A DNA stretch of 64,000 nucleotides from an uncultured Gammaproteobacteria bacterium (GCA_964356225.1 CAYHGA010000003.1:266-64265), one strand, 5' to 3'. Numbered from the stretch's first letter, positions 4,296 through 63,714 are shown. Numbers and translations are program-made. Notes: generated from the letters alone by a model not told the origin.

Positions 4296-4311
4296 TTTTT
4301 TGTGCTAAACT

Positions 4312-16379: not shown

Positions 16380-16391
16380 ATACTCTAATTA

Positions 16392-16559: not shown

Positions 16560-16594
16560 TTAACTTCTTTTATCTATTTTTAACAATTGTTAAC

Positions 16595-16706: not shown

Positions 16707-16772
16707 TTATTTTTTGCGCGCTCGATTCTTCTCTCACTTCGTTCGAGATATGATTTTTGATATAGTGATTGT

Positions 16773-17972: not shown

Positions 17973-18198
17973 GTTTGACGTAAGAAAAATTATTTCTATT
18001 GTTTTTGTAAAATTATTTTTGTATATTGTAAGTGTACTCAACTTTTTCAGGTCGTCTTTTTTAATGGCCGTTCTGGACAATTTAAGGCGACTTAAGTTGA
18101 GTACAACCAGAGCGGCCATTTGAGTTTAGTAATAAGTACTTTAAAATTTTTGCGTTTTTCTTTTTCTGCTTTCAGCGGAATGTTCGAGCCGACTTTTT

Positions 18199-18310
18199 CG
18201 GAAGCGCGGCGGGTGGGGGGCGCCGCGCTCACATTGCGAGCCTCGCCAAGGCGGGGCGAGCTAACAGTTTGACTTGAAATACGTTCGAATTTGTTCAAAA
18301 ACGTTCACAA
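18199..18310. repeat. repeat R2', right arm of the 112-bp inverted repeat
   Basis: Reverse complement of 16595-16706. It is preceded at 18160-18198 by a diverged module-b copy (aaaagtcggctcgaac). Confidence 0.9.
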
Positions 18311-18407
18311 TTTTGGAAATGGAAGCAGAAGTGGGGGCAGCGCTGGCTGCGCCCCCCTCCGCAGACAGCGCTGCAAAGGCCAAATCCAAATTCGCCGAGA
18401 GCCGCCG
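18305..18407. repeat. repeat R3, left arm of a 103-bp perfect inverted repeat flanking the recombinase gene
   Basis: Positions 18305-18407 are the exact reverse complement of 19858-19960. It contains the hairpin GCAGCGCTGGCTGCG-CCCCCCTC-CGCAGACAGCGCTGC and overlaps R2' by 6 bp. Confidence 0.9.
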
Positions 18408-18462
18408 TAAAAAAAGCATGAAGAAAAACGCAAAAATTAAAGAACTTTAAGGAATATAAAAA

Positions 18463-20004
18463 ATGATTAAATATATTGCTTACTGCCGAAAATCCACAGA
18501 TGAAAAAGATAAACAGGTTTTATCTATTGAAGCGCAAATTGCCGAACTCAAGGAGTTTGCCAAAAGAGAGGGCTTAACGGTCTCTGAATTCATTACAGAA
18601 GCCAAGACTGCTAAGATTCCGGGGAGAGTACAATTTGCTGAAATCTTAAAAAGAATAGAGAAAGGACAAGCCAACGGAATATTATCGTGGCACCCCGACC
18701 GTCTCGCTAGAAATTCGATAGATGGCGGGAAAATAATTTATCTTTTGGATACTGGCAAACTCCTTGATTTAAAATTCCCCTCGTTTTGGTTTGAGTCCAC
18801 ACCACAAGGCAAATTCATGCTCTCAATCGCCTTTGGCCAATCAAAATATTATGTCGATAATCTGTCCGAAAATGTAAAGCGAGGAAACAGACAAAAACTT
18901 CGTAATGGTGTCTGGCCCAGTAAAGCACCGTATGGCTATATCAATAACCCCAAAACGAGGGGAATAGATATTGATGAAGAAAAATCAAAAATTGTTAAAA
19001 AATCATTTCAGCTTTTTGCTGATGGAAGTATTTCTTTTACGGCTATTTCTCAATTTATGTTTAAGTTTGGGATTAAGCGAGAAGGAGAAAAACCTGTAAA
19101 AGTTGGTCAAGTTAAAAATATGCTTGCCAATAAATTTTATCTGGGAATTCTCAAATACGCCGGAGAATATTATCAAGGTTCACACAAAACCTTTATCAGC
19201 AAAAAGCTGTTTGACGAAGTTCAAAAACAAGTTGAGAAAATCGAGCGACCAAGACAAAAAGGCCACAATTTCGCTTTTGCAGGTCTGGCGACCTGCGGCG
19301 AATGCGGCGCCGCAATCACGGCGGAACAACATATAAAGAAATACAAAAACGGCACCGGCCAAACTTTTATCTATTACCGCTGTACTAAAAAGTTGAAAGC
19401 CTGTACGCAAAAATATATTTCCGAATCAGATACAGAGGAGCAGTTAAGAAAAATTGTTCGTGATTGCGGCTTGCATGAAGGCTGGGAACCGTATTTTGAA
19501 AAATGGATCACCGAAGCCGAAGAAAAAGACAAACTGACCGCCGAAACGGAAAGTAAAAAACTCGATACCCAAACCCAAGAAACAGAAATCAAATTAAACC
19601 GATTGCTTGACGGCTACCTCGACCAAGTTATTGAGCCGGATATTTACAAACAAAAGAAAAATGAATTATTTGACGAAAAACTGAAGTTAGAGGAGAATAA
19701 ATCACAAATTGAGAAAAATGGAAGTTGTTGGCTCGAACCTATGAGGGAATTCGTAAATTGCGCCTTGCAGGCGCAAAAAATCGCGCGCGCAAAAAATAAT
19801 TGCCATGATTTATCAATCATGGCAAAAAAAGTCGGCTCGAACTTCTTTTTAATGAATCGGCGGCTCTCGGCGAATTTGGATTTGGCCTTTGCAGCGCTGT
19901 CTGCGGAGGGGGGCGCAGCCAGCGCTGCCCCCACTTCTGCTTCCATTTCCAAAATTGTGAGGCGGGTGGGACTCGAACCCACGACCCTTAGCTTAAAAGG
20001 CTAG
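18463..20004 (+). CDS. large serine recombinase (resolvase/invertase-type N-domain + recombinase domain + zinc ribbon)
   Basis: Catalytic-serine region YCRKSTDEKDKQ, recombinase domain and zinc ribbon CGECG...CTKK. The ORF has no stop until it has read through repeat R3' and into tRNA-Lys (C-terminal ...VGLEPTTLSLKG), so the true C-terminus is uncertain, roughly 19830-19900. Confidence 0.85.
   Translation: MIKYIAYCRKSTDEKDKQVLSIEAQIAELKEFAKREGLTVSEFITEAKTAKIPGRVQFAEILKRIEKGQANGILSWHPDRLARNSIDGGKIIYLLDTGKLLDLKFPSFWFESTPQGKFMLSIAFGQSKYYVDNLSENVKRGNRQKLRNGVWPSKAPYGYINNPKTRGIDIDEEKSKIVKKSFQLFADGSISFTAISQFMFKFGIKREGEKPVKVGQVKNMLANKFYLGILKYAGEYYQGSHKTFISKKLFDEVQKQVEKIERPRQKGHNFAFAGLATCGECGAAITAEQHIKKYKNGTGQTFIYYRCTKKLKACTQKYISESDTEEQLRKIVRDCGLHEGWEPYFEKWITEAEEKDKLTAETESKKLDTQTQETEIKLNRLLDGYLDQVIEPDIYKQKKNELFDEKLKLEENKSQIEKNGSCWLEPMREFVNCALQAQKIARAKNNCHDLSIMAKKVGSNFFLMNRRLSANLDLAFAALSAEGGAASAAPTSASISKIVRRVGLEPTTLSLKG
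19858..19960. repeat. repeat R3', right arm of the 103-bp inverted repeat
   Basis: Reverse complement of 18305-18407. It is preceded by module b at 19824-19857 and overlaps the 3' end of tRNA-Lys at 19958-19960. Confidence 0.9.
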
Positions 20005-20030
20005 TGCTCTACCAACTGAGCTACCGCCCC
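19958..20030 (-). tRNA. tRNA-Lys (anticodon UUU)
   Basis: The minus-strand sequence GGGGCGGTAGCTCAGTTGGTAGAGCACTAGCCTTTTAAGCTAAGGGTCGTGGGTTCGAGTCCCACCCGCCTCA folds as a cloverleaf with anticodon loop CTTTTAA. No CCA is encoded. Confidence 0.8.
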
Positions 20031-45107: not shown

Positions 45108-45560
45108 CTAACTTTTACTTTCAATAATCGCTATTAGTTCCTTGCCGAATTTTAGAACATGATTTGCCAAAATTATCAGTTTTAAAACTTTTGGTGGCAA
45201 TCCTTCTATCAATATACCTTCATTGGCAAATTGATATCCAAAATCTATTGTAGGATCAACGTGCGATCCACCGTCTTGTTGAGATGCAATTTTAACAAAT
45301 TCCTCATTCGTCATACGAATTTTTTCAGTGTTAGAGGCAAAAAATAATTCCTTTAAGAGAGGTCTATTTGTAGAAGTTTCAATTACGAGAATCCTTAAAA
45401 TTCCGGATAAAGCTTTCGAATATTTCAGATCACCCGAGTTTATTTTCTGAATACTATCATCCAATAAGCTAAGCTGATCCTTTAACTCATTGATTAACTG
45501 GGCATGTGTTTTTGCGACCTTTTTCACAATAGTGTCCAATCTTGCTGCGGGACTTGGATT
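45108..45560 (-). CDS. hypothetical protein
   Basis: The ORF-track version (to 45647) reads through tRNA-Lys(CUU), so the real start is probably a GTG/TTG near 45545-45560. Confidence 0.35.
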   Translation of the reverse strand, partial: NPSPAARLDTIVKKVAKTHAQLINELKDQLSLLDDSIQKINSGDLKYSKALSGILRILVIETSTNRPLLKELFFASNTEKIRMTNEEFVKIASQQDGGSHVDPTIDFGYQFANEGILIEGLPPKVLKLIILANHVLKFGKELIAIIESKS

Positions 45561-45620
45561 CGGACCAAGATAAACAGATTCAAAGTCTGTTGGCCTACCA
45601 TTAGCCGATCCCGCAGTATG

Positions 45621-45692
45621 TGGGCTCGGTGGGAATCGAACCCACAACCGTCTCCTTAAGAGGGAGCTGCTCTACCGTTGAGCTACGAACCC
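45621..45692 (-). tRNA. tRNA-Lys (anticodon CUU)
   Basis: GGGTTCGTAGCTCAACGGTAGAGCAGCTCCCTCTTAAGGAGACGGTTGTGGGTTCGATTCCCACCGAGCCCA. Confidence 0.8.
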
Positions 45693-45709
45693 TGAGCTTA
45701 TCGAATAGG

Positions 45710-45781
45710 TGCCCTCGGAAGGAATCGAACCTTCATCTTATCCTTAGAAGGGATTTGCTCTGTCCATTGAGCTACGAGGGC
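45710..45781 (-). tRNA. tRNA-Arg (anticodon UCU)
   Basis: GCCCTCGTAGCTCAATGGACAGAGCAAATCCCTTCTAAGGATAAGATGAAGGTTCGATTCCTTCCGAGGGCA. Confidence 0.8.
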
Positions 45782-51179: not shown

Positions 51180-52022
51180 TCAGATTTCAAGATATGTTAG
51201 AAACTTATATCCAAAACGTGTTATTAAGTAATCCGATGCTCCTCCAATAGATGCGCCTGTCACTTTTAACCTAAATACACCCAGATTAAGAAGCTCACTC
51301 GTGGCTTCAGACGCTTTATTCCTTTCATCGCTTTCAAGATTTCTCGCCCTGTTTAATAAATCACTAGGCCAGCCTTCATTTTTGGGGACTCCAAACTTTT
51401 CTTTCACCTTCTCTGAATTAGTATCAAAATTTGTTTTAAGCCAGAGATCCAGCGGTTGCCAAACTGATTTGCTATGACGGTAGTAATCCCTCCACCAGTC
51501 TATGCTCCTATCCGAATTAGGATTAACCTTTTCTAACTCAAGCTCAATTTCCCCGTCCATCCCAGGAATCACCTCTCTTTTTATGATTGCTAACAGTTCC
51601 AGAGCGTCTAATGAAATCTCTGCCAATGCGCTGTTAAGTCGCTCTAGTTCAAAATCTTCTTTATCTGGATGATTTGTGAATCCTAGAAAAATATCTCTTT
51701 GAATTTTTCGTTTTTTCTCTAATCTTTGCTTCAGATATTGATCCATAAATATCAAAAACCCACCCTTAAACTCCTCACTTTGTACCATTTCAGATCTAAA
51801 CTCATTTGGATGATCATGAATAAAAGTAGTTACTTCTGTCACTCTTTCTTGGTTAAGAGCCATAAATACACCGTAAAGCCCAACGGCTGAATAAAAACAT
51901 AGTTCCCAGTAGGGGTGTAACAGTAAAAATGGTGTGATAGCTGCCGTGAAGTAAGGTATGTTGCCTTGTATTGCTGCGTTTAATCCGGACTTAAATGCCT
52001 TAGTAATAGTATTTCTATCCAT
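51180..52022 (-). CDS. hypothetical membrane-anchored protein (AT-rich gene)
   Basis: An N-terminal hydrophobic segment (FTAAITPFLLLHPYWELCFYSAVGLYGVFMAL) followed by a charged soluble domain. The third gene of a minus-strand operon. Confidence 0.45.
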   Translation of the reverse strand: MDRNTITKAFKSGLNAAIQGNIPYFTAAITPFLLLHPYWELCFYSAVGLYGVFMALNQERVTEVTTFIHDHPNEFRSEMVQSEEFKGGFLIFMDQYLKQRLEKKRKIQRDIFLGFTNHPDKEDFELERLNSALAEISLDALELLAIIKREVIPGMDGEIELELEKVNPNSDRSIDWWRDYYRHSKSVWQPLDLWLKTNFDTNSEKVKEKFGVPKNEGWPSDLLNRARNLESDERNKASEATSELLNLGVFRLKVTGASIGGASDYLITRFGYKFLTYLEI

Positions 52023-52044
52023 GGTAAAGATTATATCTTAGTTG

Positions 52045-52854
52045 TTAAATAATATTGGTATTTTTTCTCCCTTTGAGTCTTTCATCCTTTCCCACTGCTT
52101 GGTCTTTTACCCTTTTATACTTTTCGGCTTGCATAATAGCTAATTTTAATCTGTTATTTTCCTTTTCAAAAGATTGTAGATCAGTTACAAAATTTGGAGA
52201 GAAAGTTATGCGATTATATTTCAAATTTACTCCGTAAAATAAGTCCAATAAACCCATTATTATATTTGCTAAGGACCACAAATCTCCTTTGAGGATAAAT
52301 TTATTTTCCAGGTCAAAGAAAGGAGTTTCTAAACGCACAAGATTTCCAACATTCGTATATTTGAAAGTCCTATGAGTATCTACAAGGTTTGAGTGACTAG
52401 AAAGTTGCATTTGGTCTTTCATGGCTTTTATTGCTTGGGAACCTTTTGAATAATATTTCTCTAACCAATCATATCTCTTCTTCTTAAGTTTTTCGGGAAC
52501 GTCCATTAAACCTTCTGATGTGGTTAAAACAAAGTCTTCTGGTTCAGGATTCGCCAATGCATACGAAGCACTTACTCCAGACTCTAAAATCTGCCGTAGA
52601 TTCATAACAGTTTGTACATGATGACGTCTGATTGTGGAGAGAAGAGCTAACATATGATGTTTTCTAATATGAGCCAGAAAAGAAATAAAAAGCCAGCCTT
52701 CATTTTTCACCCCTGAAACGAAAAACTGAAGTAATTTAACTGATTGAAGAGCGTGTGAAAAGAACTCTCCATAATCTTTTGAGGCATCAATTAGAAGTTG
52801 GTGTTCACTATTTATTATTTCCATTAAATTTGATTGCTCGATTATCTTCTTCAT
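52045..52854 (-). CDS. hypothetical cytoplasmic protein (AT-rich gene)
   Basis: 269 aa with no known motifs. Its start overlaps the stop of the upstream nuclease gene by 4 nt. Confidence 0.45.
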   Translation of the reverse strand: MKKIIEQSNLMEIINSEHQLLIDASKDYGEFFSHALQSVKLLQFFVSGVKNEGWLFISFLAHIRKHHMLALLSTIRRHHVQTVMNLRQILESGVSASYALANPEPEDFVLTTSEGLMDVPEKLKKKRYDWLEKYYSKGSQAIKAMKDQMQLSSHSNLVDTHRTFKYTNVGNLVRLETPFFDLENKFILKGDLWSLANIIMGLLDLFYGVNLKYNRITFSPNFVTDLQSFEKENNRLKLAIMQAEKYKRVKDQAVGKDERLKGRKNTNII

Positions 52855-52857
52855 ATC

Positions 52858-53631
52858 TTATTGACACTGAGAGTCACAGGCCGTTCCATCACCATCAGCA
52901 TCTCTTCTGGAACAGCCACAAGTATTTAATTGATATTGAGCTTCGTCACAAGACATATTTGCACAGGTCTTGGAGCAGTTACAGGCCCATGATCCATCTG
53001 CATTTTGGGCAGGTGGAGCAATAGTCGTTTTAGGTGTGGGGGTAGGAATACTGGCACAAGTTAAACCCCACAGGCCTCTCTGATTGTCTCTAGCATCTTG
53101 TTGGGCAACTATAAACCTTTCCTGATACTTAATATCCGGTGGATATGAAGAAGATTGTGCATAACCTTCTTTGACAAGCAATTCGTTTATTAGTACATCA
53201 CCTTTCCAAACATATCTAAGTAAACGTTTGTATTTATCAGTCTCAGAGACATCCTTTTCTAATCTAACTTTTTGACCTTCTATGAGTTCAGTTGTTTTTG
53301 CTGAGGCTTCTTTGCCGTAGCACTGTATTGGTTTACTGGGGTGAACTGTCTCTGGAGTATCCATGCCAATCATGCGAACCACTTTGCCTCCTTCGATAGT
53401 AAATGTATCCCCATCAATAACATTAGTGACTACTGTGTCGGTAAATAAAGAATCCAACGATGTGGGTGTAGGTGAAGGGACTTGAATTTCGACTGCTTGT
53501 GGCGAAGGCGTGGGTGATATTTGATTATTCTTCTTATTTGAAGAACCACCAAAAATACCAACCAGAACCATTAAGACCATAAAACCAAAAATAAACAAAA
53601 TAATCTTTTTCATTTGAATCAGATTATACAT
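52858..53631 (-). CDS. secreted thermonuclease (SNase-like) with C-terminal Excalibur Ca-binding domain
   Basis: Signal/anchor MKKIILFIFGFMVLMVLVG, SNase motifs GDTFTI..VRMIGMDTPE and a Cys-rich C-terminus with DADGDGTACD (DxDxDGxxC). Confidence 0.7.
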   Translation of the reverse strand: MYNLIQMKKIILFIFGFMVLMVLVGIFGGSSNKKNNQISPTPSPQAVEIQVPSPTPTSLDSLFTDTVVTNVIDGDTFTIEGGKVVRMIGMDTPETVHPSKPIQCYGKEASAKTTELIEGQKVRLEKDVSETDKYKRLLRYVWKGDVLINELLVKEGYAQSSSYPPDIKYQERFIVAQQDARDNQRGLWGLTCASIPTPTPKTTIAPPAQNADGSWACNCSKTCANMSCDEAQYQLNTCGCSRRDADGDGTACDSQCQ

Positions 53632-53668: not shown

Positions 53669-54829
53669 ATGGCACTCAAAAATCCAATCCTTTGTGGTAT
53701 TGATATTGGTTCTTCTAAAATTGCTTTAATCGTGTCAGTCATGGAGAATGGCCGGATTAGTGTGTTGGGAGTAGCCACAATGCCTTCTAAAGGCATTAAG
53801 AAAGGTCAGATCGTAGATATTGATGGTACTGCAGATGTGGTTAAGGAGTGCTTAAAAGCAGCTGAAAGAATGTCTGGACACACAATAAATTCAGCCTTTG
53901 TATCAATCGGGGGATCACACATCGAAAGTACCAACACCCACGCCGTAGTAGCCATATCTCCTGATCACGATATAAACGATAAGGATTTGGAAAGATTAAA
54001 CGAAATTGCCAAGGCAGTAGCTTTACCCTCCTCAAGGGAAATATTGCACACTTTACCGATAAGCTACACCATAGACGGCCAAACAGGAATAAAGAATCCT
54101 CTGGAAATGTCTGGCTCGAGATTGGAAGTTGTCACCCACATCGTTAGCGGATCAAGTGTAGCCATCAGTAATTTGACTAAATGTATGGAAAAGGTAGGAG
54201 TAAATATCGAAAGAATAGTTTTTGCAGGTGTTGCTTCTGCCGAGGCCATTTTGACGGAGACCGAAAAAGAGCTAGGCGTGGTGTTGATTGATTTGGGAGC
54301 TGAAACTGTAGATATTGTAATAATTTACGAAGGAGCTGTAGTCTATTCTGCAGTAACACCTATAGGCACTAAATATATTACCAATGACATTGCCATTGGA
54401 CTAAAAATCTCTATGGAATCAGCCGAGTCAATTAAGCGGGAAGCCGTTGATCCCACTCTAAAAAGCGATGAAAACATGATAATCAAAGCCAGAGTAAAAG
54501 AAATTTTAGAACTGGTAAATAAAGAGATCAAGAGAAGTAAGTATGGGCTTCAGGTTCCTTTGGGTGTAGTTGTCTGTGGCGGTGGATCTTTGACAGTGGG
54601 CTTAATTGACCAAATAAGACGCATATTGGCTTTTCCAGCCAGAATAGGCAAGGTAGAAGGTTGGAGTGGTTTGACTGATGAAATCGGTTCTCCTGCTTTT
54701 GCCACGGCTGCAGGTTTGATCTTGTATGGATTAAATACACAAACAGATAATACTAAAGGTTTCTCTGCCAAAACTTGGTTTGATAAGGTTACCAACTTAA
54801 TAATAAAAACAATTCGCTCGTTATTTTAA
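53669..54829 (+). CDS. ftsA: cell division protein FtsA (actin-like ATPase)
   Basis: N-terminus GIDIGSSKIALIV and full FtsA domain order, with a C-terminal amphipathic helix (KTWFDKVTNLIIKTIRSLF). No ftsZ follows. Confidence 0.75.
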   Translation: MALKNPILCGIDIGSSKIALIVSVMENGRISVLGVATMPSKGIKKGQIVDIDGTADVVKECLKAAERMSGHTINSAFVSIGGSHIESTNTHAVVAISPDHDINDKDLERLNEIAKAVALPSSREILHTLPISYTIDGQTGIKNPLEMSGSRLEVVTHIVSGSSVAISNLTKCMEKVGVNIERIVFAGVASAEAILTETEKELGVVLIDLGAETVDIVIIYEGAVVYSAVTPIGTKYITNDIAIGLKISMESAESIKREAVDPTLKSDENMIIKARVKEILELVNKEIKRSKYGLQVPLGVVVCGGGSLTVGLIDQIRRILAFPARIGKVEGWSGLTDEIGSPAFATAAGLILYGLNTQTDNTKGFSAKTWFDKVTNLIIKTIRSLF

Positions 54830-55006
54830 TAACTTTATACAAGCCGCCGCTCTATTATCACTACCCAATTTCAAACATTCCATTTTTCGTTCTTCTATAG
54901 TTCTTGGTTTTAGCTCTTTGTAAATCCTGATGCCAAAATAAGCAACAACTACCAAACAGGTTATAAAGATAATTAAGTTTAACGGTTGTCTAATAAAGTT
55001 TTTCAT
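54821..55006 (-). CDS. tiny single-TM protein
   Basis: 61 aa with one TM helix. The last of four overlapping small genes. Confidence 0.35.
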   Translation of the reverse strand: MKNFIRQPLNLIIFITCLVVVAYFGIRIYKELKPRTIEERKMECLKLGSDNRAAACIKLLK

Positions 55007-55009
55007 AAT

Positions 55010-55231
55010 TTATAGTCCTTTCTCATGCAAGCATTTCTTATATGCATAATCATAACAGTCTTCACGCCTACAACTTGCTCGTTCTCCCCATTGTACAGCC
55101 CAATTACAGTAAGACCTTGTTCTTACCGGACGCCACTGGAACCAATAGAACCAACTAGCCATTAAAAACAGACCAAGTAAAATCAATAATATTTTCTGTT
55201 TATTTTCCTTAATCATATTTATTTTTGCCAT
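55010..55231 (-). CDS. tiny single-TM Cys-rich protein
   Basis: 73 aa with a TM helix and four Cys. Confidence 0.35.
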   Translation of the reverse strand: MAKINMIKENKQKILLILLGLFLMASWFYWFQWRPVRTRSYCNWAVQWGERASCRREDCYDYAYKKCLHEKGL

Positions 55232-55638
55232 CTTCCTTCAATTTTTGCTTCAGTACAATTATTAATAAAGCCTTCTCCAAAAGATTGAAGTTCTTTATTT
55301 TGCAACATGTTGTTTGTACATAATTCTGTCAAACAAGATCTTACGGCGTCAAAAAAAGATTCTTCATTCTTATTTGCTATTGCTATACACTCAGTACGAG
55401 CCCTGTTCCATGTGTCTTGTGTTATTTTTTGGCTTTCTCGAAAATTATCTTCCCGTTCTTTTATTAGTTTATCATTCTTTGCAACAGAATCCTTTTCTTT
55501 TTGATATTCAAATATTTGTTTTTCTAGTATTAATTGAGCACTCTCTTTTTTTGGAACGAGTATTACAAAATAGTAAGCAATAGACAGAGATGCAATTAAG
55601 ATAGAAATTCCTAAAAGGATAAGCAAAATCTTTTTCAT
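55219..55638 (-). CDS. small TM + coiled-coil protein
   Basis: 139 aa with an N-terminal TM helix and a charged coiled-coil-like tail. Confidence 0.4.
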   Translation of the reverse strand: MKKILLILLGISILIASLSIAYYFVILVPKKESAQLILEKQIFEYQKEKDSVAKNDKLIKEREDNFRESQKITQDTWNRARTECIAIANKNEESFFDAVRSCLTELCTNNMLQNKELQSFGEGFINNCTEAKIEGRWQK

Positions 55639-56222
55639 ATATTATCAAGGGTCTTTACTTTTTCCCATTGGTCAAATCCATTAAAAATCATCTGCCCTCC
55701 CCAAAGAAAACCGCCAATCCAGATAATCGGTAAACCAAGATATATTGTTAGCCCTCCTAACCCGATTATTGATGTCCCTATGAAAATTTTGGGCCAAGGA
55801 TTAAAGGATCTAAAATTCAATTCTTGGCCACATTTATTGCAATTATTTATTACTCCTATATTTTGACGACTAAATACAAGTTTGCAGTTTGTACAATATA
55901 GCCGAAGGTATTTATTTCCTTTTAGATTTATCTCTTGCATAATCTTGCTAAATGACGCCACATCATTGTTCTCAACTATATCAATCATCGTTTCAATATC
56001 CTCTTCGCTCATATCAGGAGTAACTTTACGTAAGTTTTTTCTGGCCTCTTCTCGTGTGATTCCTATTTTTAATTTATCGACATCCATACAATTTTTGGTT
56101 AAAGGAAAACAAAAAGCTCCCCACCAGTGGCGGCCTCTCAGCCACCCACATCTCTTTCGAGACGTGACCTCAGTGAGAAGCTCTGATGAGGAGCTTTTAC
56201 TCACTGAGGATTTCTGTACCAT
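55635..56222 (-). CDS. zinc-ribbon (CxxC...CxxC) + C-terminal TM protein
   Basis: CTNCK...CNKCGQ followed by a TM helix. The likely real start is the internal Met (MDVDKLKIG) near 56087. Confidence 0.4.
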   Translation of the reverse strand: MVQKSSVSKSSSSELLTEVTSRKRCGWLRGRHWWGAFCFPLTKNCMDVDKLKIGITREEARKNLRKVTPDMSEEDIETMIDIVENNDVASFSKIMQEINLKGNKYLRLYCTNCKLVFSRQNIGVINNCNKCGQELNFRSFNPWPKIFIGTSIIGLGGLTIYLGLPIIWIGGFLWGGQMIFNGFDQWEKVKTLDNI

Positions 56223-56318
56223 GCCTAAAAGTTTGCACCTCTAGGTTTAGGCAACTATTGAAAGTTTAGCATATTTCGAAATTTGCCTTGTGATATTTTG
56301 CGTTTGTAAAATTGGATC

Positions 56319-56645
56319 ATGGTCAAAGAAGATAAAACAGCTCTACTCAAGAAAAGATTCATTGAATACTTTTGTGAATTGCCGGTGCAGAAACTGGCCG
56401 GGGCTTGGATTGGAAAAGATGAGGACACGATTTCCCAATGGAAGAAGAAAGATGCGGATTTTGCGGACCAAATCGGCAAGGCTAAGGCAAACTGGGCAAT
56501 GAAACACTCAAAAGCGATTAAATCCGATGAATGGCTACTCGAACGAATTATGAAGGATCACTTCGCTTCCCGCAACGAACTTGTCGGAGACATGACAGTT
56601 AATATTATCAGACGATCATATCTTGAAAATATAAATGGAGAATGA
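56319..56645 (+). CDS. small DNA-binding protein, terminase small-subunit-like
   Basis: 108 aa, placed immediately upstream of and overlapping terL. No firm motif. Confidence 0.35.
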   Translation: MVKEDKTALLKKRFIEYFCELPVQKLAGAWIGKDEDTISQWKKKDADFADQIGKAKANWAMKHSKAIKSDEWLLERIMKDHFASRNELVGDMTVNIIRRSYLENINGE

Positions 56646-57993
56646 AATTCCGTATCATTTCAAAGCCAGGGATTATCAAATTCCCTTTTTAAGGGAAGTC
56701 GAAAAGGCTGTTGAGGGTAAAAGTGATAAACGATATTTTATGCAGATTTGGCATAGGCGATCTGGTAAAGACAAGGTCAATATAGCCGATATTGTCCCCG
56801 GAAGACTCATCAAAGATCCAATCCTCGTTAAATTCGTCTATCCGACTTTAGTAATGGGTCGAGATAACCTCTGGGAAGGCATAGGCAGTGACGGTTTCAA
56901 GTTCATTGACCATATTCCGGAATTTATTCGGGCCGGCCAGGCTAATCAGTCCCGCATGACCATTCCCATTATAAAAGGTTCAATCTTTCAAATTGCCGGC
57001 ACGGACAATCCCGACTCGCTTAGAGGTGGCAATGCAAAGATGTATGTTTTCTCCGAATGGAGTGAGCATGACCCCTACGCTTGGGACGTGGTAGAACCGA
57101 TTCTTCGGGAAAACGACGGCATTGCCATTTTTAACATGACTCCCAAAGGTGATAATCACGCCCGAGCTCTGTACGAATACGCCAAGAACAACCCTAAATG
57201 GTATGTTGAGGTTTTAACGGCCCAAGATACCAGACTATTTAGTCCAGCGCAATTAGATGAGATTCGGCAGGACATTATCAGCCGTTTTACCGCCAATGGC
57301 CGGAGCGAATCAGAAGCTTTGGCTTATTTCGATCAGGAGTATATGTGCAGCTTCACTTCTCCGGTTATTGGATCATATTATGGAGCGGCAATTCGCAAAG
57401 CCGAAGAAGAAAACCGAATAACCAGCGTTCCCCACAATTCAGGCGTGTCGGTTTCAACCTACTGGGATCTGGGTATTGATGACTCTACGACCATTTGGTT
57501 TCTGCAAACAGTTGGTCAAGAACTCCACTTAATTGATTATTACGAAAACTCCGGAGAAGGGTTGCCCCATTATGTCCAGATCATTCACGGTAAAGGTTAC
57601 ACCTATCAAAACCATTATGCTCCCCACGATATTGAAGTCAGAGAGTTGGGAAGCGGAAAATCGAGAATGGAAATTGCTAAGAGTCTGGGTATCAATTTTA
57701 AGTTATGCCCCAACCTTTCCGTCGATGACGGAATCGAAGCCGCCCGGACAATTTTCTCTCGTTGCTGGTTCGACCAGACGAAATGTGACCGGGGTATCCA
57801 AGCCCTCAAGAACTATAAGAAAGATTGGGACGAGAAGAACAAAATCTTCAGAAACAACCCGAAACATGACTGGTCGAGTCATGGGGCCGACAGCTTCCGC
57901 TATCTGGCAATCGGCTACAGGGAACCAAAGCGGTACATTCCCCAAATTGATTTTGGAGGCGTAAAACCGCTCTACCCAGACTGGTTCGCCTAG
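56635..57993 (+). CDS. terL: phage terminase large subunit
   Basis: Walker-A-like WHRRSGKDK (Terminase_6 style) and a C-terminal RNaseH-like nuclease region (YWDLGIDDSTTIW...DSFRYLAIG). Confidence 0.7.
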   Translation: MENEIPYHFKARDYQIPFLREVEKAVEGKSDKRYFMQIWHRRSGKDKVNIADIVPGRLIKDPILVKFVYPTLVMGRDNLWEGIGSDGFKFIDHIPEFIRAGQANQSRMTIPIIKGSIFQIAGTDNPDSLRGGNAKMYVFSEWSEHDPYAWDVVEPILRENDGIAIFNMTPKGDNHARALYEYAKNNPKWYVEVLTAQDTRLFSPAQLDEIRQDIISRFTANGRSESEALAYFDQEYMCSFTSPVIGSYYGAAIRKAEEENRITSVPHNSGVSVSTYWDLGIDDSTTIWFLQTVGQELHLIDYYENSGEGLPHYVQIIHGKGYTYQNHYAPHDIEVRELGSGKSRMEIAKSLGINFKLCPNLSVDDGIEAARTIFSRCWFDQTKCDRGIQALKNYKKDWDEKNKIFRNNPKHDWSSHGADSFRYLAIGYREPKRYIPQIDFGGVKPLYPDWFA

Positions 57994-58052
57994 AGGTAAC
58001 AATTTAACAGTCTAAACGCTTATAATAGGCTCAATTAACTATTAAGATTAAA

Positions 58053-58874
58053 ATGAAAAAAAGTAAGATCGCGAAATCTCAGACTAGCGTTACGGAAGAA
58101 GTATATTATCCCACGGTTATCCCCGATAAAAGTGATGAACTGGACAGAATAAGTCGAGAGATGCAAATCCGTGATAGGGATAAAAGAGAAGCTGAAAAAA
58201 AACACAAAGAACTTCTACGCCAACAAAGAATAGTAAATACCACTGAAAATAAATACCTTCACACTATTAATCTTCTCCTGGATAGGGCAGAACAAAAAAA
58301 GATAAAAAACACTATTGATAGCAATTCAACTGGGACCGGCTTTTCAGTTAAATGGGAGTTCTTTAATTTCGAGGATAACAATATGTTGAAAAATTTTCTC
58401 AATGAATTAAAGAGCAAAGGTTGCTTTGATTGGCAAGTTAACCCCTTTATGCCCGCTCATGTGGCAGAGTTTATATTCACTAATGTAAATTCTGAAGCAC
58501 TCTCAAAAGAAAAAGTAACCAAAGAAGTCATTCGCTTTGTACCGGGAGAAATCGTACTTTACAACAAGGGAGTTGTTTACTTTAAGCAAGGAGATGGTTT
58601 ACCAGCCTCCATTGATTTTTCTACAGCCCCATGTGAGCAAAAGACAGTGGACGCCCTTATGGAATTAAGGGCAGAAAAACTGGGACAAACTAGTTTTACG
58701 CCTAAAGATATTTTGGACAAATACAGCAAACTACATAAAAAACCTATTACCTTGCGTGACATCGCTATCTCTATTTCAAACATTCAAAAAAGGGTGAGAA
58801 TAAAAGCTCTTGAGAGCCGATTTAATATAGGCTACGATAAAAAAACAAAGACGAGAGTTTTTCAGCTTTCCTAG
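58053..58874 (+). CDS. hypothetical protein (island cargo)
   Basis: 273 aa with a charged N-terminus. No motif recognised. Confidence 0.4.
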   Translation: MKKSKIAKSQTSVTEEVYYPTVIPDKSDELDRISREMQIRDRDKREAEKKHKELLRQQRIVNTTENKYLHTINLLLDRAEQKKIKNTIDSNSTGTGFSVKWEFFNFEDNNMLKNFLNELKSKGCFDWQVNPFMPAHVAEFIFTNVNSEALSKEKVTKEVIRFVPGEIVLYNKGVVYFKQGDGLPASIDFSTAPCEQKTVDALMELRAEKLGQTSFTPKDILDKYSKLHKKPITLRDIAISISNIQKRVRIKALESRFNIGYDKKTKTRVFQLS

Positions 58875-58974
58875 GCTCCATCTCTTACATATTACGTGTA
58901 TTACGCAGATTAGACAGCTTTAGCTTCGAATTTGGTCTATTGACTCGTTCCCGTAATCTAGCGATTGTCGTCTC

Positions 58975-59235
58975 ATGACAAGATTACAAGAAGATAAAAT
59001 CTTCGCTTCGCAGGAGCTTTCATTAGTAGCCGCTTTGGTTTCTTGGGGGTTCCCAATTTTTTCTGTTGAAAGATCCGACCCCAAACGTATTATCTTTGCG
59101 TTTGATAACTCCCCTGAACTCCAAGATGCGGTGCAGGACTTTTGGGATGACTCTGGAGTAGTTTCGCCCAAAAAGTATTTCAGTGCGCTTCGAGAAATTA
59201 AATCAAGAATCTATGGAGGTGGCAATGTTGCTTAA
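58975..59235 (+). CDS. hypothetical small protein
   Basis: 86-aa ORF. Confidence 0.3.
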   Translation: MTRLQEDKIFASQELSLVAALVSWGFPIFSVERSDPKRIIFAFDNSPELQDAVQDFWDDSGVVSPKKYFSALREIKSRIYGGGNVA

Positions 59236-59461
59236 TAAGGCTTCAGTCATACACCAATGTTCTTCTTGTGGATCAAAGGAGCGAATCTATACTCTGAAAC
59301 TCATTTCCTCAGGCCGATCTTTCCCATACCCGATGTATATTCCCCAGATCAAAGAGCTTTGTCAGAAGTGTAATAGGTATATCCGCTTTGTCCCCCAATC
59401 GCCCGAGTTAGTTAACCGTTTTAACAACAGATTGGAGGAAGAGTGGCTCGTAAACGCATGA
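59183..59461 (+). CDS. small zinc-ribbon protein
   Basis: CSSCGS...CQKCNRY four-Cys arrangement. Confidence 0.35.
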   Translation: MRFEKLNQESMEVAMLLNKASVIHQCSSCGSKERIYTLKLISSGRSFPYPMYIPQIKELCQKCNRYIRFVPQSPELVNRFNNRLEEEWLVNA

Positions 59462-59976
59462 TCGATCCAAGTATTTGGGCTGATGAGGACTTCGGCAGGC
59501 TCTCTTCTGATGCAAAAGTGATGTTTATTGGCATGATTTCTAACGCCGATGACGAAGGAAGACTTCCCGGTGATTCCATTTATTTGAGCGCAACAATCTT
59601 TCCCTTCAATGGATTGTCCCCTCAAAAAGCATCAAGAATCTGTAAAGAAATTGAGGAAAAAATGAAATCTGCAACGTTTTTTGTTGAAAAATCGAAAAAA
59701 TACATTCAGCTCGAAAAATTCCTTATCTATCAATCAATAAACAGACCCACCCCTAGCAAGTATCCCCAGCCTCGAAAAGACGAAAAGACTCATGTAGTAC
59801 TCACTGAACAATCATTGAGGACTCATGGAGGACTCACTCCTAATAGAATAGAAGAGAATAGAAAGGAATCTCTTTCAAAAGAAAATCCACCGTATGGTGA
59901 TAATGAGTTTGAGAAAAATGCGTGGGAAGCGGCAAATGAGGTAACAGCTATCCTCAACAGAAGGAGACAAAAATGA
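59443..59976 (+). CDS. phage replisome organizer-like protein (N-terminal domain)
   Basis: MIDPSIWADEDFGRLSSDAKVMFIGMISNADDEGRL matches the phage replisome organiser N-domain pattern. Confidence 0.5.
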   Translation: MARKRMIDPSIWADEDFGRLSSDAKVMFIGMISNADDEGRLPGDSIYLSATIFPFNGLSPQKASRICKEIEEKMKSATFFVEKSKKYIQLEKFLIYQSINRPTPSKYPQPRKDEKTHVVLTEQSLRTHGGLTPNRIEENRKESLSKENPPYGDNEFEKNAWEAANEVTAILNRRRQK

Positions 59977-61577
59977 ATCCCCTAGACCATGCAAAAGTCT
60001 ATTTGGGCCTTGGTTGGTCGTTGATACCAATTGTTCCGGAGACCAAGAAACCGCCAATATTGTGGGGTGAGTTCCAAACTAGAAGGGCAACTTTATCAGA
60101 AATTGAAGAGTGGATAACCAAAGGCTGGTATTTAGCGGTTGTCACAGGAGATATATCCGGAGTGTTGGTGGTTGACGATGACCGGGTTAAGCACGGCCTC
60201 AATGAATGGGGTTTTACTTCACCAATGATCGCTAAGTCTCAAAATAGCGGAAAGCATTATTACTACAAGTACGATCGAGAAATCCATAGCCACTCAAATG
60301 GTGATTTACACATTGATTTGAAAGCATGGCACTCTTATTGCTTATTACCTCCCTTCAACGGTCGAGAATGGCTATCTAGTCTTTCGGAAAACCTAAACAA
60401 ACTAACCTTTATTCCCGACGAAATCGTGAGACTGGTAAATTCTGACAAGGTAGAGAGGGAACAACGCCGGGAACCATTGAGAATGGCCGACTTTATAAAC
60501 ATCCCAGAAGGGGCGAGAACTGACAGTTTACATCGTCTAGGTTGTTCAATTTTTAACCACATGAGCAAGGATGACGGAATGAGAATATTAGCCGGAGTTA
60601 ACCTAACTTACGAACCACCCCTTACTCAGAGTGAATTCGATTACCAAATTTCCAGAGCGTGGGAATTTGTGCAGGCTAATCCGAAGAAGAAACCTCCTGA
60701 ACCTGAAGTTGCTGTACCTCATCAAGACAGGCTTGTGCTAAAAAGCGGAATACCTTCATTAGACGCCATCCTAGGTGGATTCCATTCAGGGGGAGGATAT
60801 ATTATCGGTGGCGAAGAAAAATGCGGCAAAACGAGTCTGATATTGAACTTTGTTCAGTATTTCGTCGAATCAGATCAACGAGTTTTTTACGCCTCAACCG
60901 AACTTAAAGATTATGACGTCCAAAGCTACATGGACTCAATCTCCGGTAAAAAAGGTTGGACAAACCCAAATTTTCACTTTTATGACTTGGGAGAGACAGG
61001 TTCCTTAAAAGAACATCTTGAGATTATCGAGTCGGAATTGGCTTCCGGAACTAGAATCGTAGTGATAGACAACTTAACATCCTATCGTGACCACATTAAT
61101 CTAGCAAAAGACGAGTGGATGCGAATAGCACAGGCCGGAGATAGTTACCGAAAACTGGGCAGAAAATGGGAGGCGGTTGTGCTTATGGTTCTTCACTTAA
61201 ACCAAGGCACGAAACTCAACGAAATCCCCAAGTCGGTAAGGGTACTTCTAGAAAAGGGTGAGGCTGAGAAAATTTTTACCGAAAGTGTTTCGGTTTACGG
61301 ACGGCCCTCAAAAGACAACTTAAAGGGTGGATCAGGTTTCAGAAGCCAAACTTTTGGTCAGATATTAGTTTGGCGTCCATTCCAGGGCTTTTATTTACCT
61401 CACCTAAATAAATTGTGTGGTTTGATTGTGGAAAACAACCGATACGGTCCCACTGGTGAAGTCCGGCTTAATTTTGATGGGGCTACTAAGAAGTTTGAAG
61501 AGGTCGAGCTAACACCTACCGAAAAAGATGATGACAAACCTTATCAATCTGAATTTTCAAATATGGAGCAGATATGA
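59973..61577 (+). CDS. bifunctional primase-polymerase (PrimPol N-domain) fused to DnaB-like/RecA-fold helicase
   Basis: LGLGWSLIPIVPETKKPPILWGEF...VVTGDISGVLVVDDD (Prim-Pol) and a C-terminal SLDAILGGFHSGGGYIIGGEEKCGKTSL Walker A. Confidence 0.7.
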   Translation: MNPLDHAKVYLGLGWSLIPIVPETKKPPILWGEFQTRRATLSEIEEWITKGWYLAVVTGDISGVLVVDDDRVKHGLNEWGFTSPMIAKSQNSGKHYYYKYDREIHSHSNGDLHIDLKAWHSYCLLPPFNGREWLSSLSENLNKLTFIPDEIVRLVNSDKVEREQRREPLRMADFINIPEGARTDSLHRLGCSIFNHMSKDDGMRILAGVNLTYEPPLTQSEFDYQISRAWEFVQANPKKKPPEPEVAVPHQDRLVLKSGIPSLDAILGGFHSGGGYIIGGEEKCGKTSLILNFVQYFVESDQRVFYASTELKDYDVQSYMDSISGKKGWTNPNFHFYDLGETGSLKEHLEIIESELASGTRIVVIDNLTSYRDHINLAKDEWMRIAQAGDSYRKLGRKWEAVVLMVLHLNQGTKLNEIPKSVRVLLEKGEAEKIFTESVSVYGRPSKDNLKGGSGFRSQTFGQILVWRPFQGFYLPHLNKLCGLIVENNRYGPTGEVRLNFDGATKKFEEVELTPTEKDDDKPYQSEFSNMEQI

Positions 61578-61867
61578 AGACTTTGTTTCTCAAAACTAGT
61601 AGCACCTATCTTCTTAAACAGTTTCGGTGTTTCGGCATCCCGGTGATGCGAGAAGGTGACCAAACAATTGGCTTCTTACCCCCCAGCTTTTTTGTGGGAG
61701 TAAATAACCAACTGCTGGTGAGCAAAAGATTAAAACAATGGGCAAAAAACATGGATCCAAATGTGATTCTTACTTTAGGAGAATGGCAACCGTTAAATAT
61801 CTTTTGGGAAAAGGCTATTCCTTCACTCTTGCTGGGTAACTTAATCAAAATATATGACAAACCATGA
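61574..61867 (+). CDS. hypothetical small protein
   Basis: 97 aa, overlapping the upstream stop. Confidence 0.3.
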   Translation: MKTLFLKTSSTYLLKQFRCFGIPVMREGDQTIGFLPPSFFVGVNNQLLVSKRLKQWAKNMDPNVILTLGEWQPLNIFWEKAIPSLLLGNLIKIYDKP

Positions 61868-62035
61868 TTAGCCAAATTGCGCTATCGGAGTTAAAGACAA
61901 TCTTGTTAAAAGATTATGGCTGGTCGGGTGACGATAAAACTACCACCCAGCTTGCAAATTATTTTTTGGTATCTCTTGAAGCGGTACTTTTGAGTCCAAA
62001 AGTTGACAAAACACCCAGAAAGGAGGCAAAGTGAT
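61865..62035 (+). CDS. small ORF (56 aa) immediately upstream of and overlapping the integrase start; RDF/excisionase candidate
   Basis: Manual translation gives MISQIALSELKTILLKDYGWSGDDKTTTQLANYFLVSLEAVLLSPKVDKTPRKEAK. It is not in the ORF track. Confidence 0.25.
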
Positions 62036-63659
62036 AGTCAACGATCTGTCAAAAATGAAAATTATATCCACTGTCCAAAAACGATACTATTTAGTCTACT
62101 TGCGAAAAAGTAGCGAGTCAGAAGACCGCCAAGTTCAAAGTATCGAAGACCAAAGAAAAGAAATTAAGCCCCTAATTGAGGATAGAAGTCTCGAAATTTT
62201 AGAAGTGTTTCAAGAATCCAGATCGGCAAAAGCTCCAGGTAGAGTTGAATTTGACCGCATGGCCAAACTCATAAGCGAGCGAGAGGATATTAAGGGTATT
62301 GTTTGCTGGAAATTAAACCGTCTTAGCCGTAATCCTGTGGACACTGGGGCGCTACAATGGCTGATACAGTCTAAAAAGATCGAAGAGATTGTTACTCCAA
62401 GCAAGACTTATACCGATGTTGATAGTGACTTTATTATGGCTGTGGAAGGCGCTCAAGCCAATAGATTCATACGGGATCTAAAAGAAGACACTTGGCGAGG
62501 CATGAAATCCAAAATTGAAAAAGGGATGGCTCCGGTATTAGCCGTTCCGGGGTATCTAAACGACAAAACAAAAGATCAAGGTAAGAAAGATATTATTGTG
62601 AATCCAGTGCAGTTCCCACTAATGCGTAAACTTTTTGATATGGCTTTGACAGGTAACTATTCGATTACTGATCTTTATGAGCAGGCAGATAAAATGGGCA
62701 TCAGAACTAATCGAGGGAAAAGAATTAGTCATTCTCGAATGGCAGAATTATTGAAAGATATATTTTATATAGGTAAGTTTGTTTATGGTGGTCAGACATA
62801 TGATGGCATCCATAAACCAATGTTATCTATGCAGGAATTTGAACTGTTGCAAGAGATATTCTCCAAAGGAGATAGACCAAGATCATCCGTTCACCACAAT
62901 CCCTATTCTGGGGATCTAATTAAATGTGTCTGCGGAAGATCGCTATCACTTGACCCCAAAGTAAAGACATATAAAAATGGTAAGTCACAAGAGTTTGTTT
63001 ACTTACGATGCAATCGTCCACACTATCAACCCAATAGTGCTTGTCCAAAATCTTCAATCAACATTAAAGATCTGGAAAAACAGATCCTTGAGCAACTGGG
63101 ATCAATCCTCATTTCACCTGATCTTATTAAATGGGGAATCGAAAGATTGAATGAAAAGAATATGGACAAACAAAAGTCTCGTGAAGCTGAAAATCTAGCA
63201 ATCAAACAGGCTTATGATCGAGTGGTAATCCAATTAGATAGTCTTCTTCAATTAAAGCTGTCACCCAATAATATCAATGGAAGTTTATTGTCGGATATGG
63301 AATATGCAGAGCAAAGAGTGATCCTTTTGAAGGAAAGAGATAAATACAATGTCCAACACAGTTCGTTGGACAAGAATAGAGAAGATTGGGCACAGATGGC
63401 TGTGGCAGTGTTTAACTTCGCCGCAAAAGCTCAAGAGAAGTTTGCTACCGGTAATTTGGAAACCAAACGAGACATTTGTAAGATCTTTGGAACCAGCATG
63501 ATTTTGAATGGAAAAAAGCTCGAAGTTTTATCCAGAACGCCGTTTATTTTTATAAAAGATGCTTTAAGAGTCACCGAACCTAACAAAATGCCTATTTATA
63601 GCTCCGAAGCGACACTTCATGCCTTTGAAGATAACTTTGGGGTGGTGTACGGGAGTTGA
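62031..63659 (+). CDS. large serine recombinase (integrase), paralog of 18463-20004
   Basis: YLRKSSESEDRQ catalytic region, recombinase domain and a Zn-ribbon (CVCGRS...CNRPHY...C). GTG start. The 3' end overlaps tRNA-His by 19 nt. Confidence 0.85.
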   Translation: MIVNDLSKMKIISTVQKRYYLVYLRKSSESEDRQVQSIEDQRKEIKPLIEDRSLEILEVFQESRSAKAPGRVEFDRMAKLISEREDIKGIVCWKLNRLSRNPVDTGALQWLIQSKKIEEIVTPSKTYTDVDSDFIMAVEGAQANRFIRDLKEDTWRGMKSKIEKGMAPVLAVPGYLNDKTKDQGKKDIIVNPVQFPLMRKLFDMALTGNYSITDLYEQADKMGIRTNRGKRISHSRMAELLKDIFYIGKFVYGGQTYDGIHKPMLSMQEFELLQEIFSKGDRPRSSVHHNPYSGDLIKCVCGRSLSLDPKVKTYKNGKSQEFVYLRCNRPHYQPNSACPKSSINIKDLEKQILEQLGSILISPDLIKWGIERLNEKNMDKQKSREAENLAIKQAYDRVVIQLDSLLQLKLSPNNINGSLLSDMEYAEQRVILLKERDKYNVQHSSLDKNREDWAQMAVAVFNFAAKAQEKFATGNLETKRDICKIFGTSMILNGKKLEVLSRTPFIFIKDALRVTEPNKMPIYSSEATLHAFEDNFGVVYGS

Positions 63660-63714
63660 ACCCGCTAAAACTGCCTCCACAGGGCAGCGCCTAAACCGTT
63701 CGGCACACACCACC
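63641..63714 (-). tRNA. tRNA-His (anticodon GUG) with encoded G-1
   Basis: G(-1)+GTGGTGTGTGCCGAACGGTTTAGGCGCTGCCCTGTGGAGGCAGTTTTAGCGGGTTCAACTCCCGTACACCACC. Perfect 7-bp acceptor stem, anticodon loop CTGTGGA and discriminator C. Confidence 0.75.

Follow-up and report, generated by a model that had tools for sequence, protein, structure and literature searches.

A predicted exported nuclease gene followed by two putative accessory genes, one of them from an undescribed family found inside type I restriction-modification operons

Genes carried inside type I restriction-modification (R-M) operons frequently act as independent or back-up anti-phage defences, as in the case of the anticodon nuclease PrrC; HEPN-type RNases are common among such embedded genes and among abortive-infection (Abi) genes, and the hotspots of P4-like elements and phage-inducible chromosomal islands (PICIs) carry variable defence genes. 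TgvAB, located on VPI-2 of Vibrio cholerae, is a further defence embedded in a type I R-M operon (PMC11411939), and the “guilt-by-embedding” approach considers genes nested in defence systems as phage defence candidates (bioRxiv 10.1101/2024.01.29.577857). Secreted nucleases of the SNc type are frequent in Patescibacteria, for which a function in nucleobase salvage has been proposed (PMC11495043). Here, these systems serve as references for a three-gene locus (positions 51180 to 53631) in a 64,000-nt stretch of DNA assigned to an uncultured Gammaproteobacteria bacterium (GCA_964356225.1, CAYHGA010000003.1:266-64265; the whole stretch is referred to below as “the window”), in which a predicted exported staphylococcal-type nuclease gene (nuc) is followed by two genes without any described family, named orfB and orfC. 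The reading in which we place somewhat better than even confidence is that this locus is a composite of an exported salvage nuclease and two horizontally acquired accessory or island genes, and not a system.

The locus consists of three co-directional open reading frames (ORFs) on the minus strand, as described in an original prediction made from the same sequence, and all three represent genuine genes with conserved homologues for each. Homologues of the genes beside nuc come from lineages of the Candidate Phyla Radiation (CPR). The three genes are as follows.

52858..53631, minus strand: nuc, predicted exported staphylococcal-type thermonuclease of 257 amino acids (aa); some gene callers place the start 6 codons later (251 aa).
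52045..52854, minus strand: orfB, 269 aa, predicted soluble and all-helical; member of a large undescribed family tied to R-M operons and defence islands; GC content 33%.
51180..52022, minus strand: orfC, 280 aa; member of a small CPR-restricted family of 31 clusters without family-library match; AlphaFold2 (AF2) model with a predicted local distance difference test (pLDDT) score of 73.

The contexts in which orfB homologues occur were retrieved from 22 species-representative GTDB loci, from the contigs of selected homologues and from one plasmid. Three type I R-M operons (L016, L024 and L033) are arranged as hsdM-orfB-hsdS-hsdR, and their genes either overlap, by up to 26 nt, or are at most 4 nt apart, the exception being a distance of 275 nt between hsdM and orfB in L024. 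These three homologues are genes nested in a multi-gene defence system, which the window copy is not. L016 and L033 belong to different CPR bins and share hsdM and hsdR sequences that are 91-93% identical at the DNA level (97% for the HsdM protein and 99% for HsdR), the two operons diverging between positions 8154-9804 of L016 and 4639-6340 of L033, in a segment that begins at approximately codon 55 of orfB and extends almost to the hsdS stop. Considering that HsdM and HsdR are 97-99% identical while orfB is 58% and HsdS 36% identical, orfB and hsdS have been swapped as one cassette between these two operons.

Of 23 orfB loci, 10 have a large serine recombinase gene at a distance of ≤8 kb. When 150 neighbouring genes located up to 4 kb away were considered, the most frequent Pfam families were Resolvase/Recombinase (6), HsdR domains (4-5), HsdM (3) and Fic (3), the PADLOC flags corresponding to type I R-M, SoFic and mads components. 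Further neighbours include an island with genes for PLD/NgoFVII, Shedu SduA_C, PDDEXK, Schlafen-AlbA, DUF2726 and Pif1 proteins, as well as a Schlafen-helicase/GIY-YIG/S24 protein together with an RNase H. Homologues with 72-74% identity to the window copy reside in wholly different neighbourhoods, that of L059 adjoining SIR2 and DUF4011 helicase genes and that of L060 being located upstream of a Dam-like methyltransferase gene. The sole plasmid match is found on Caulobacter plasmid pCB4, together with AbiEii, Prim-Pol and TIR genes, while phage genomes and IMG/VR contigs yielded no match to the orfB or orfC family. Contexts of this kind characterise a mobile gene that is carried as cargo by defence islands.

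As a separate observation, in L029 (positions 87-5912) an orfB homologue is located two genes downstream of a gene specifying a 1590-aa RHS-repeat/Laminin_G protein. A position downstream of an RHS-repeat gene is usual for immunity or orphan cassettes.

The embedded copies could also be understood in another manner, namely that orfB, instead of being an independent defence effector, assists or regulates type I R-M systems (in assembly, specificity switching or restriction alleviation) and that the window copy is an orphan remnant. Translational packing between hsdM and hsdS in three operons and the joint exchange of orfB and hsdS between operons that are elsewhere 91-93% identical are consistent with this, as is the comparison of L024 with L016, where 57% identity for orfB is close to the 61-63% obtained for HsdM/HsdR, suggesting long co-residence. 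However, embedding in an R-M operon was seen in only 3 of approximately 27 sampled loci, the L019 copy being merely near hsdR and hsdM and not embedded, and most copies are stand-alone genes in varied islands without a type I system. The window orfB is moreover intact and has relatives that are 70-74% identical, which argues against a decaying remnant, and we therefore regard an R-M accessory role as unlikely.

The full trio was retrieved only from near-identical contigs of the window's own strain, derived from Hainich groundwater metagenomes. An apparent orfB pseudogene in L037, from a related strain in which the DNA is 99.2% identical, was dismissed as an assembly artefact of a 1.9x-coverage assembly with 22 gap positions. 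Co-occurrence was assessed by phmmer searches over all ORFs of 23 independent orfB loci plus L044, L059 and L060, giving 26 loci in total: orfC adjoins orfB in none of them, and a SNase gene is present within approximately 2 kb of orfB in a single locus (L030, at 1.7 kb). Conversely, when 12 further orfC contexts were examined, orfB was absent from 11, the exception being L047, a relative with an 83% identical orfC in which an orfB fragment overlaps orfC by 4 nt. In L046 orfC is preceded, at a distance of 10 nt, by a SNase gene, while in L038 an orthologous SNase-Excalibur gene is located 1.1 kb from orfC. Since the adjoining element and small genes are common to L038 and the window, the latter co-location represents inherited synteny with shuffling, and L046 is therefore the only independent recurrence of a SNase-orfC association. 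It follows from these counts that nuc-orfB-orfC is not a conserved three-gene module outside the window lineage. A functional module centred on the nuclease, to which the original prediction saw the two unknown proteins tightly coupled, is consequently not borne out, homologues being found beside a nuclease gene once for orfB (L030) and once independently for orfC (L046); the occurrence of such homologues in defence islands elsewhere, which the original prediction had suggested examining, did apply to both families, which are present in defence or mobile islands.

The same counts bear on the suggestion that a two-gene unit made up of orfB and orfC, working as sensor and effector or as toxin and antitoxin, was inserted as a block behind nuc. 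Such a unit would be in keeping with the adjacency of the two genes in L047, where the ORFs overlap by 4 nt, with their 22-nt gap in the window, with the low GC content of both, and with an orfB homologue, P0078 (see below), in which an orfB domain is joined to a module of four transmembrane (TM) helices, hinting at hydrophobic partners. Nevertheless, no orfC is found beside orfB in the 26 other loci, including those where orfB is 72-74% identical, and no orfB beside orfC in 11 other contexts; in addition, the two families differ approximately 20-fold in size (659 clusters at 50% identity versus 31 at 90% identity) and are unrelated by profile-profile comparison. An inserted pair of this kind is accordingly improbable, to about the same degree as the R-M accessory role.

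The nuclease itself is readily classified, and its parts are listed below.

53548..53610, minus strand: putative signal peptide or signal anchor of nuc, approximately residues 8-28, KKIILFIFGFMVLMVLVGIFGG, based on Kyte-Doolittle hydropathy.
53065..53439, minus strand: SNase catalytic domain, residues 65-189, based on Pfam, NCBIfam and PDB alignments.
52861..52986, minus strand: C-terminal tail rich in Cys, residues 216-257, in which RDADGDGTACD resembles the Ca-binding motif of Excalibur, read at the motif level.

The SNase domain assigned in the original prediction was retrieved as Pfam PF00565 (81.3 bits versus a cut-off of 21, E = 8.4e-23, residues 85-188). The best NCBIfam match is the thermonuclease NucI (E = 2.6e-36), and because its score of 124.7 bits is under the equivalog cut-off of 250, nuc is not an orthologue of NucI. 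Staphylococcal nuclease chains in the PDB (4odg/1ey0-type) match at E = 1e-17, the nuc segments IDGDT, VRMIGMDTPE and YKRLLRY being aligned to the staphylococcal IDGDT, FRLLLVDTPE and YGRGLAY, and equivalents of the Staphylococcus aureus catalytic and Ca2+-binding residues D21, R35, D40, T41, E43 and R87 are conserved. At the N-terminus, a KK pair precedes a 19-residue hydrophobic core with a mean Kyte-Doolittle hydropathy of 2.94, the sole clear TM-grade stretch among the three proteins. Such a strongly hydrophobic N-terminus is in line with the secretion proposed earlier, so that the catalytic domain of nuc is predicted to lie outside the cell, the enzyme being either exported or anchored. 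The Excalibur assignment fared less well: the Cys-rich tail and its motif RDADGDGTACD are visible, but Pfam Excalibur (PF05901) gave no match to nuc even at E≤10. The resemblance is at the motif level only, the sequence fitting DxDxDGxxC[ED] with D in place of the final E of the Excalibur DxDxDGxxCE. Residues 211-256 are matched by phrog_5854, of unknown function, at 1.8e-5, and the tail is retained in the L038 orthologue, with the motif as RDADGDGIACD. Genes of the PNP_UDP_1 (purine/uridine-phosphorylase), NUDIX and HAD-type hydrolase families, as identified by Pfam, adjoin nuc and would fit a role of nuc in salvage.

The PADLOC model “SNc+LTD” matches nuc at 1.8e-37 over model positions 6-180 of 279, corresponding to the SNase part only, and this match reflects a shared domain and is not evidence of a defence system. 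It is nonetheless one of the points that could be raised for a single nuclease-based defence or abortive-infection system, as put forward in the original prediction; detection of infection or regulation would then fall to orfB and orfC, with the SNase as effector. The tight co-directional packing of the three genes, the presence of both the orfB and the orfC family in defence islands, and the proximity of a SNase gene to orfC in the L046 island and to orfB in L030 can be added to it. Against this stands the strong export signal together with the Cys-rich tail of an extracellular Ca-binding type, as a consequence of which nuc would be expected to act outside the cell and not on intracellular phage DNA. 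The restriction of the “SNc+LTD” match to the SNase domain, the failure to find the trio in any of the 26 further orfB loci or in 11 further contexts of orfC, and the explanation of the window/L038 co-location by shared synteny with gene shuffling point in the same direction. With an export signal that argues against an intracellular effector, and with components that do not co-occur, a three-gene defence system appears very unlikely.

As far as the orfB protein is concerned, no match was found in Pfam, NCBIfam, PHROG or PADLOC-DB v2.0.0 (the latter at E≤1), and orfC likewise had no match in Pfam, NCBIfam, PHROG or PADLOC (E≤1), in agreement with the earlier statement that neither protein belongs to a described family. 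A word-indexed search identified orfB homologues in 46 clusters at 90% identity, and an exhaustive profile search expanded the family to 659 clusters at 50% identity (E≤1e-3; 266 at E≤1e-30), its members being nearly all stand-alone proteins of 240-260 aa. The AF2 model of orfB, built from a 39-sequence alignment, has a pLDDT of 93.5 and a predicted template modelling (pTM) score of 0.88, and is all-helical with two small hairpins. Foldseek searches with this model against PDB and BFVD returned nothing at E≤0.001, the top matches being generic helical bundles (G-protein-coupled receptors and ClyA); of the structure and remote-homology searches that had been advised, the AF2 and Foldseek part was thus carried out for both orfB and orfC, and gave no significant fold for either. 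The orfB family is therefore absent from the databases searched and without likeness to a solved fold by Foldseek, making it undescribed and possibly a new fold.

When 122 diverse members were compared, E91 and H154 proved invariant and E17, S73, R76, H78, Q81, R87, W130, K146 and D181 near-invariant. The conservation of the polar residues among these suggests a single catalytic or ligand-binding site, which, from the helix topology of the model, may be placed at one pole of the helical bundle, and a conserved site of the E/H/R/D type suggests that orfB could be an enzyme. Several candidate assignments were considered and rejected. A HEPN RNase is not supported as there is no conserved Rx4-6H, the conserved arrangements being R76-x-H78 and R87-x3-E91, and HEPN was neither among the Pfam families shown for the relatives nor among the structures retrieved by Foldseek against PDB. 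A reproducible local profile match of 58 residues to cyanobacterial aldehyde decarbonylase (E = 2-3e-4) raised the possibility of a ferritin-like di-iron protein (aldehyde deformylating oxygenase, ADO), yet a single ligand Glu falls on E91 and the DEYTH (EXXH) motif falls on non-conserved residues, and ADO or other ferritin-like folds were not retrieved by Foldseek. Matches to armadillo repeats are repeat-summed artefacts of a short WxxxNIA motif. The one Pfam resemblance that recurs, a weak one, is to DUF5677 (PF18928), matched by 9 of the 122 relatives at E≤10 with a best value of 0.0088, compared to at most 3 members for each other family; with no match for the window orfB, and no relative being significant or above the gathering threshold, this resemblance is at most suggestive.

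With regard to domain fusions, the above-mentioned P0078 (498 aa) carries an N-terminal module of approximately 240 aa with four strongly hydrophobic helices ahead of a complete orfB domain, and is either a fusion or a gene-calling merge. No Pfam domain was found in the extensions of P0078, P0087, P0093, P0198 and P0180, and those of P0078 and P0087, the two that were compared, are unrelated to orfC. Profile-profile comparison by hhalign found the orfB and orfC families to be unrelated (hhalign probability 5%).

For orfC, all 31 clusters (90% identity) are unnamed or derived from CPR bins. The N-terminal 110 residues of its AF2 model are poor (pLDDT 42-64 over residues 1-100), and the better-modelled part is the following.

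51183..51668, minus strand: C-terminal half of orfC, residues 119-280, pLDDT 80-92, with invariant ELERLN and SDRSxxWW motifs.

In the model, residues 220-276 form a helix, a beta-hairpin and a helix, in a winged-helix-like arrangement. Foldseek against PDB retrieved nothing at E≤0.001, only weak winged-helix matches (MarR, PadR, CodY, TubR and ScpB, all at E>0.5) being obtained, and orfC may possibly bind nucleic acid. The N-terminal TM region or membrane anchor ascribed to orfC in the original prediction is doubtful: hydropathy over 19 residues peaks at 1.24 in the N-terminus, a value of 1.6 is attained by no more than 2 of 24 homologues while the remaining 22 are below the TM threshold, and this part of the model is of low confidence.

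The contexts of orfC include several mobile or R-M-related islands. In L045 it comes immediately after the gene for a large serine recombinase, in an island with HsdR and a ParB-methyltransferase, in L040 its neighbours specify a Dam-type methyltransferase, the endonuclease BglII and a controller protein (C-protein), in L046 it belongs to an island with M78 peptidase, DUF4411, EcoRI methylase, GmrSD and DUF2130 genes, and in L054 it adjoins the gene for a Hypoth_Ymh protein. Furthermore, three lineages, represented by the window, by L038/L050 and by L006/L049, have homologous Prim-Pol/terminase elements whose terminase end is 1-3 kb away from orfC. A side observation concerns L046 (positions 798-3922), where the gene for a 568-aa, extremely S/P/T/Q-rich protein with a winged-helix-like C-terminus overlaps by 4 nt the start of the SNase gene, which encodes a TM-anchored protein of 188 aa and is followed 10 nt further on by the orfC homologue.

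These properties of orfB and orfC also bear on the proposal that both are processing or uptake accessories for DNA fragments liberated by nuc. Their co-location with a predicted exported nuclease and a nucleoside-salvage cluster is consistent with such a role, and the winged-helix-like C-terminus modelled for orfC, a weak similarity, could bind nucleic acid. On the other hand, orfB is predicted to be soluble and helical, without features of transporters, competence proteins or nucleases, the orfC N-terminus is under the TM hydropathy threshold in 22 of 24 homologues, and neither family is tied to nucleases, transporters or salvage genes elsewhere. From the earlier idea of extracellular DNA scavenging with an uptake or processing accessory, a salvage role for nuc can be retained as it fits the neighbouring genes, whereas nothing ties orfB or orfC to uptake and the anchoring of orfC is doubtful; the accessory part of this idea is, in our estimation, the least probable of the alternatives and close to negligible.

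Base composition was compared among the genes of the locus and their neighbours, GC contents being 33.3% for orfB, 38.1% for orfC, 39.9% for nuc, 40.4% for ftsA and 43.6% for the NUDIX gene, with a window mean of 44.6% (sd 4.9, 800-bp windows). The low value of orfB corresponds to the 2.5th percentile of the 800-bp windows and makes this gene clearly AT-rich; orfC, at the 10th percentile, is mildly AT-rich and only 2 points under ftsA, so that the markedly lower GC content originally ascribed to both genes relative to NUDIX and ftsA holds for orfB but not for orfC. Horizontal acquisition, for which the GC dip had been cited, is plausible on the basis of the low GC content of orfB, the presence of 72-74% identical homologues in other neighbourhoods and the adjacent integrative element. 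A repeat scan of the locus found no flanking att-like (attachment-site-like) repeats, the only repeat being an exact 16-nt direct repeat inside orfB and orfC, GCCAGCCTTCATTTTT, at window positions 51368-51383 (orfC) and 52692-52707 (orfB), which encodes KNEGW in both genes. Its rough chance expectation for the region is ~1e-3, and it is hence unexplained, the orfB and orfC families being otherwise unrelated.

At the junction between nuc and orfB the sequence reads CAA TAA GAT ATG AAG, corresponding to a 3-nt spacer (TAA-GAT-ATG) instead of the 4-nt overlap between the nuclease stop and the orfB start that had been reported, while the 22 nt given for the distance between orfB and orfC agree with the ORF coordinates and the sequence. 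The first two genes are in the same frame with only TAA GAT between them (window 52855-52860), and read-through of the stop codon would yield a fusion protein; the shared frame is probably a coincidence, as one in three such junctions would show it by chance. On co-transcription, simple scans for promoters and terminators gave no information.

Taken together, we favour the composite reading, according to which nuc would most likely be a Sec-exported, Ca2+-dependent enzyme, membrane-anchored or secreted, that digests extracellular nucleic acid for nucleotide salvage in a cell of the Patescibacteria (CPR). Downstream of it, orfB and orfC would be independently mobile accessory genes that landed there and are probably read from the nuc transcript. 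Because its homologues are elsewhere packed between hsdM and hsdS or found in recombinase-borne defence islands, orfB is taken to be defence-associated and its function is, by analogy, probably defence-related; it would act as a stand-alone protein, for example an abortive-infection-type or R-M back-up factor. For orfC, the contexts point to a CPR-only island gene that recurs in the vicinity of R-M genes and at the cargo end of elements of the Prim-Pol/terminase/serine-recombinase type.

A number of observations weigh against this reading. The tight spacing of the genes (3 nt and 22 nt in the window, and the 4-nt orfB/orfC overlap in L047) is compatible with functional coupling, and the SNase-orfC pair separated by 10 nt has recurred independently in L046. 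Approximately half of the orfC contexts consist of housekeeping or cell-envelope-like genes. The defence role of orfB has genomic context as its only support, without a recognisable catalytic fold, and in the window no R-M or known defence gene is present beside orfB or orfC. Finally, of DUF5677, the sole Pfam family to which orfB bears even a faint likeness, a recent screen included one protein, and it did not figure among the defences found active (PMC12632615).

A bolder possibility, which is put forward tentatively and with distinctly less confidence than the composite reading, is that the orfB family constitutes a new single-protein anti-phage or R-M back-up defence with an unseen catalytic fold, widespread in Patescibacteria and swapped with hsdS, which in this lineage may also pair with orfC. 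The nuclease operon as such is ordinary, exported SNase-type nucleases being common in CPR bacteria and the extra genes being hitch-hikers. It is orfB that deserves attention, as a sizeable undescribed family that is repeatedly R-M-embedded or found in recombinase-borne islands in ultra-small bacteria whose immune repertoire is poorly known; the guilt-by-embedding logic suffices to nominate it for phage-defence testing, and the orfB-hsdS cassette swap provides a concrete, testable link of orfB to R-M specificity modules.

To the right of the locus, a true ftsA gene (Pfam FtsA and SHS2_FTSA, window 53669-54829) separates the trio from an integrated element of approximately 9 kb (window 54821-63713), the components of which are as follows.

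54821-56222, minus strand: four small low-GC ORFs, three with hydrophobic N-termini.
56319-56645: 108-aa gene, paired with the TerL-like gene.
56635-57993: TerL-like gene, 452 aa.
59973-61577: Prim-Pol/PriCT_1 homologue, 534 aa.
62055-63659: large serine recombinase gene, the 3' end of which overlaps tRNA-His.
63638-63713: tRNA-His.

No FtsZ signature (GGGTG[ST]G) is present anywhere in the 64-kb window, ftsA being without ftsZ after it, and it may be the insertion of the integrated element that parted ftsA from the gene usually paired with it. A second probable island is located at window positions 15200-20030, where a large serine recombinase gene (18463-20004) overlaps tRNA-Lys (19957-20030, minus strand) and a Fic-family gene is present at 15345-16379 (minus strand); the lowest GC content of the window, 31-35%, is found at 15.2-17.6 kb. 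Three tRNA genes (Gln, Lys and Arg) are located on the minus strand at 45544-45781, where overlapping mechanical ORFs of 179 and 70 aa are almost certainly spurious.

In comparison with known systems, nuc resembles the staphylococcal/thermonuclease (SNase) family in possessing a full SNase domain, the Ca2+-binding and catalytic residues and a predicted N-terminal export signal, and differs from it by an S/P/T-rich linker and a Cys-rich tail with DxDxDGxxC[DE]. DUF5677 genes are reported to be enriched beside serine recombinases in defence contexts (PMC12632615), and orfB-family genes are likewise near serine recombinases, although the window orfB gives no Pfam match and no family member reaches significance. 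When compared to the defence cargo at the ends of integrative elements or phage satellites, the trio differs in that ftsA intervenes between it and the element in the window, and in that neither family was found on IMG/VR contigs or phage genomes, yet it is similar in the position of orfC at 1-3 kb from the terminase end in three lineages and in the proximity of orfB-family genes to genes for large serine recombinases (10 of 23 loci). From the R-M-embedded defences (PrrC, TgvAB and the guilt-by-embedding candidates), orfB is distinguished by having no sequence or fold likeness to PrrC, to GmrSD-like proteins or to any PADLOC v2.0.0 model, by the lack of an ATPase, nuclease or HEPN signature, and by a window copy that is unembedded in any defence system; what it shares with them is the presence of its homologues inside hsdM-hsdS-hsdR operons, with minimal spacing, and also as free-standing genes in islands.

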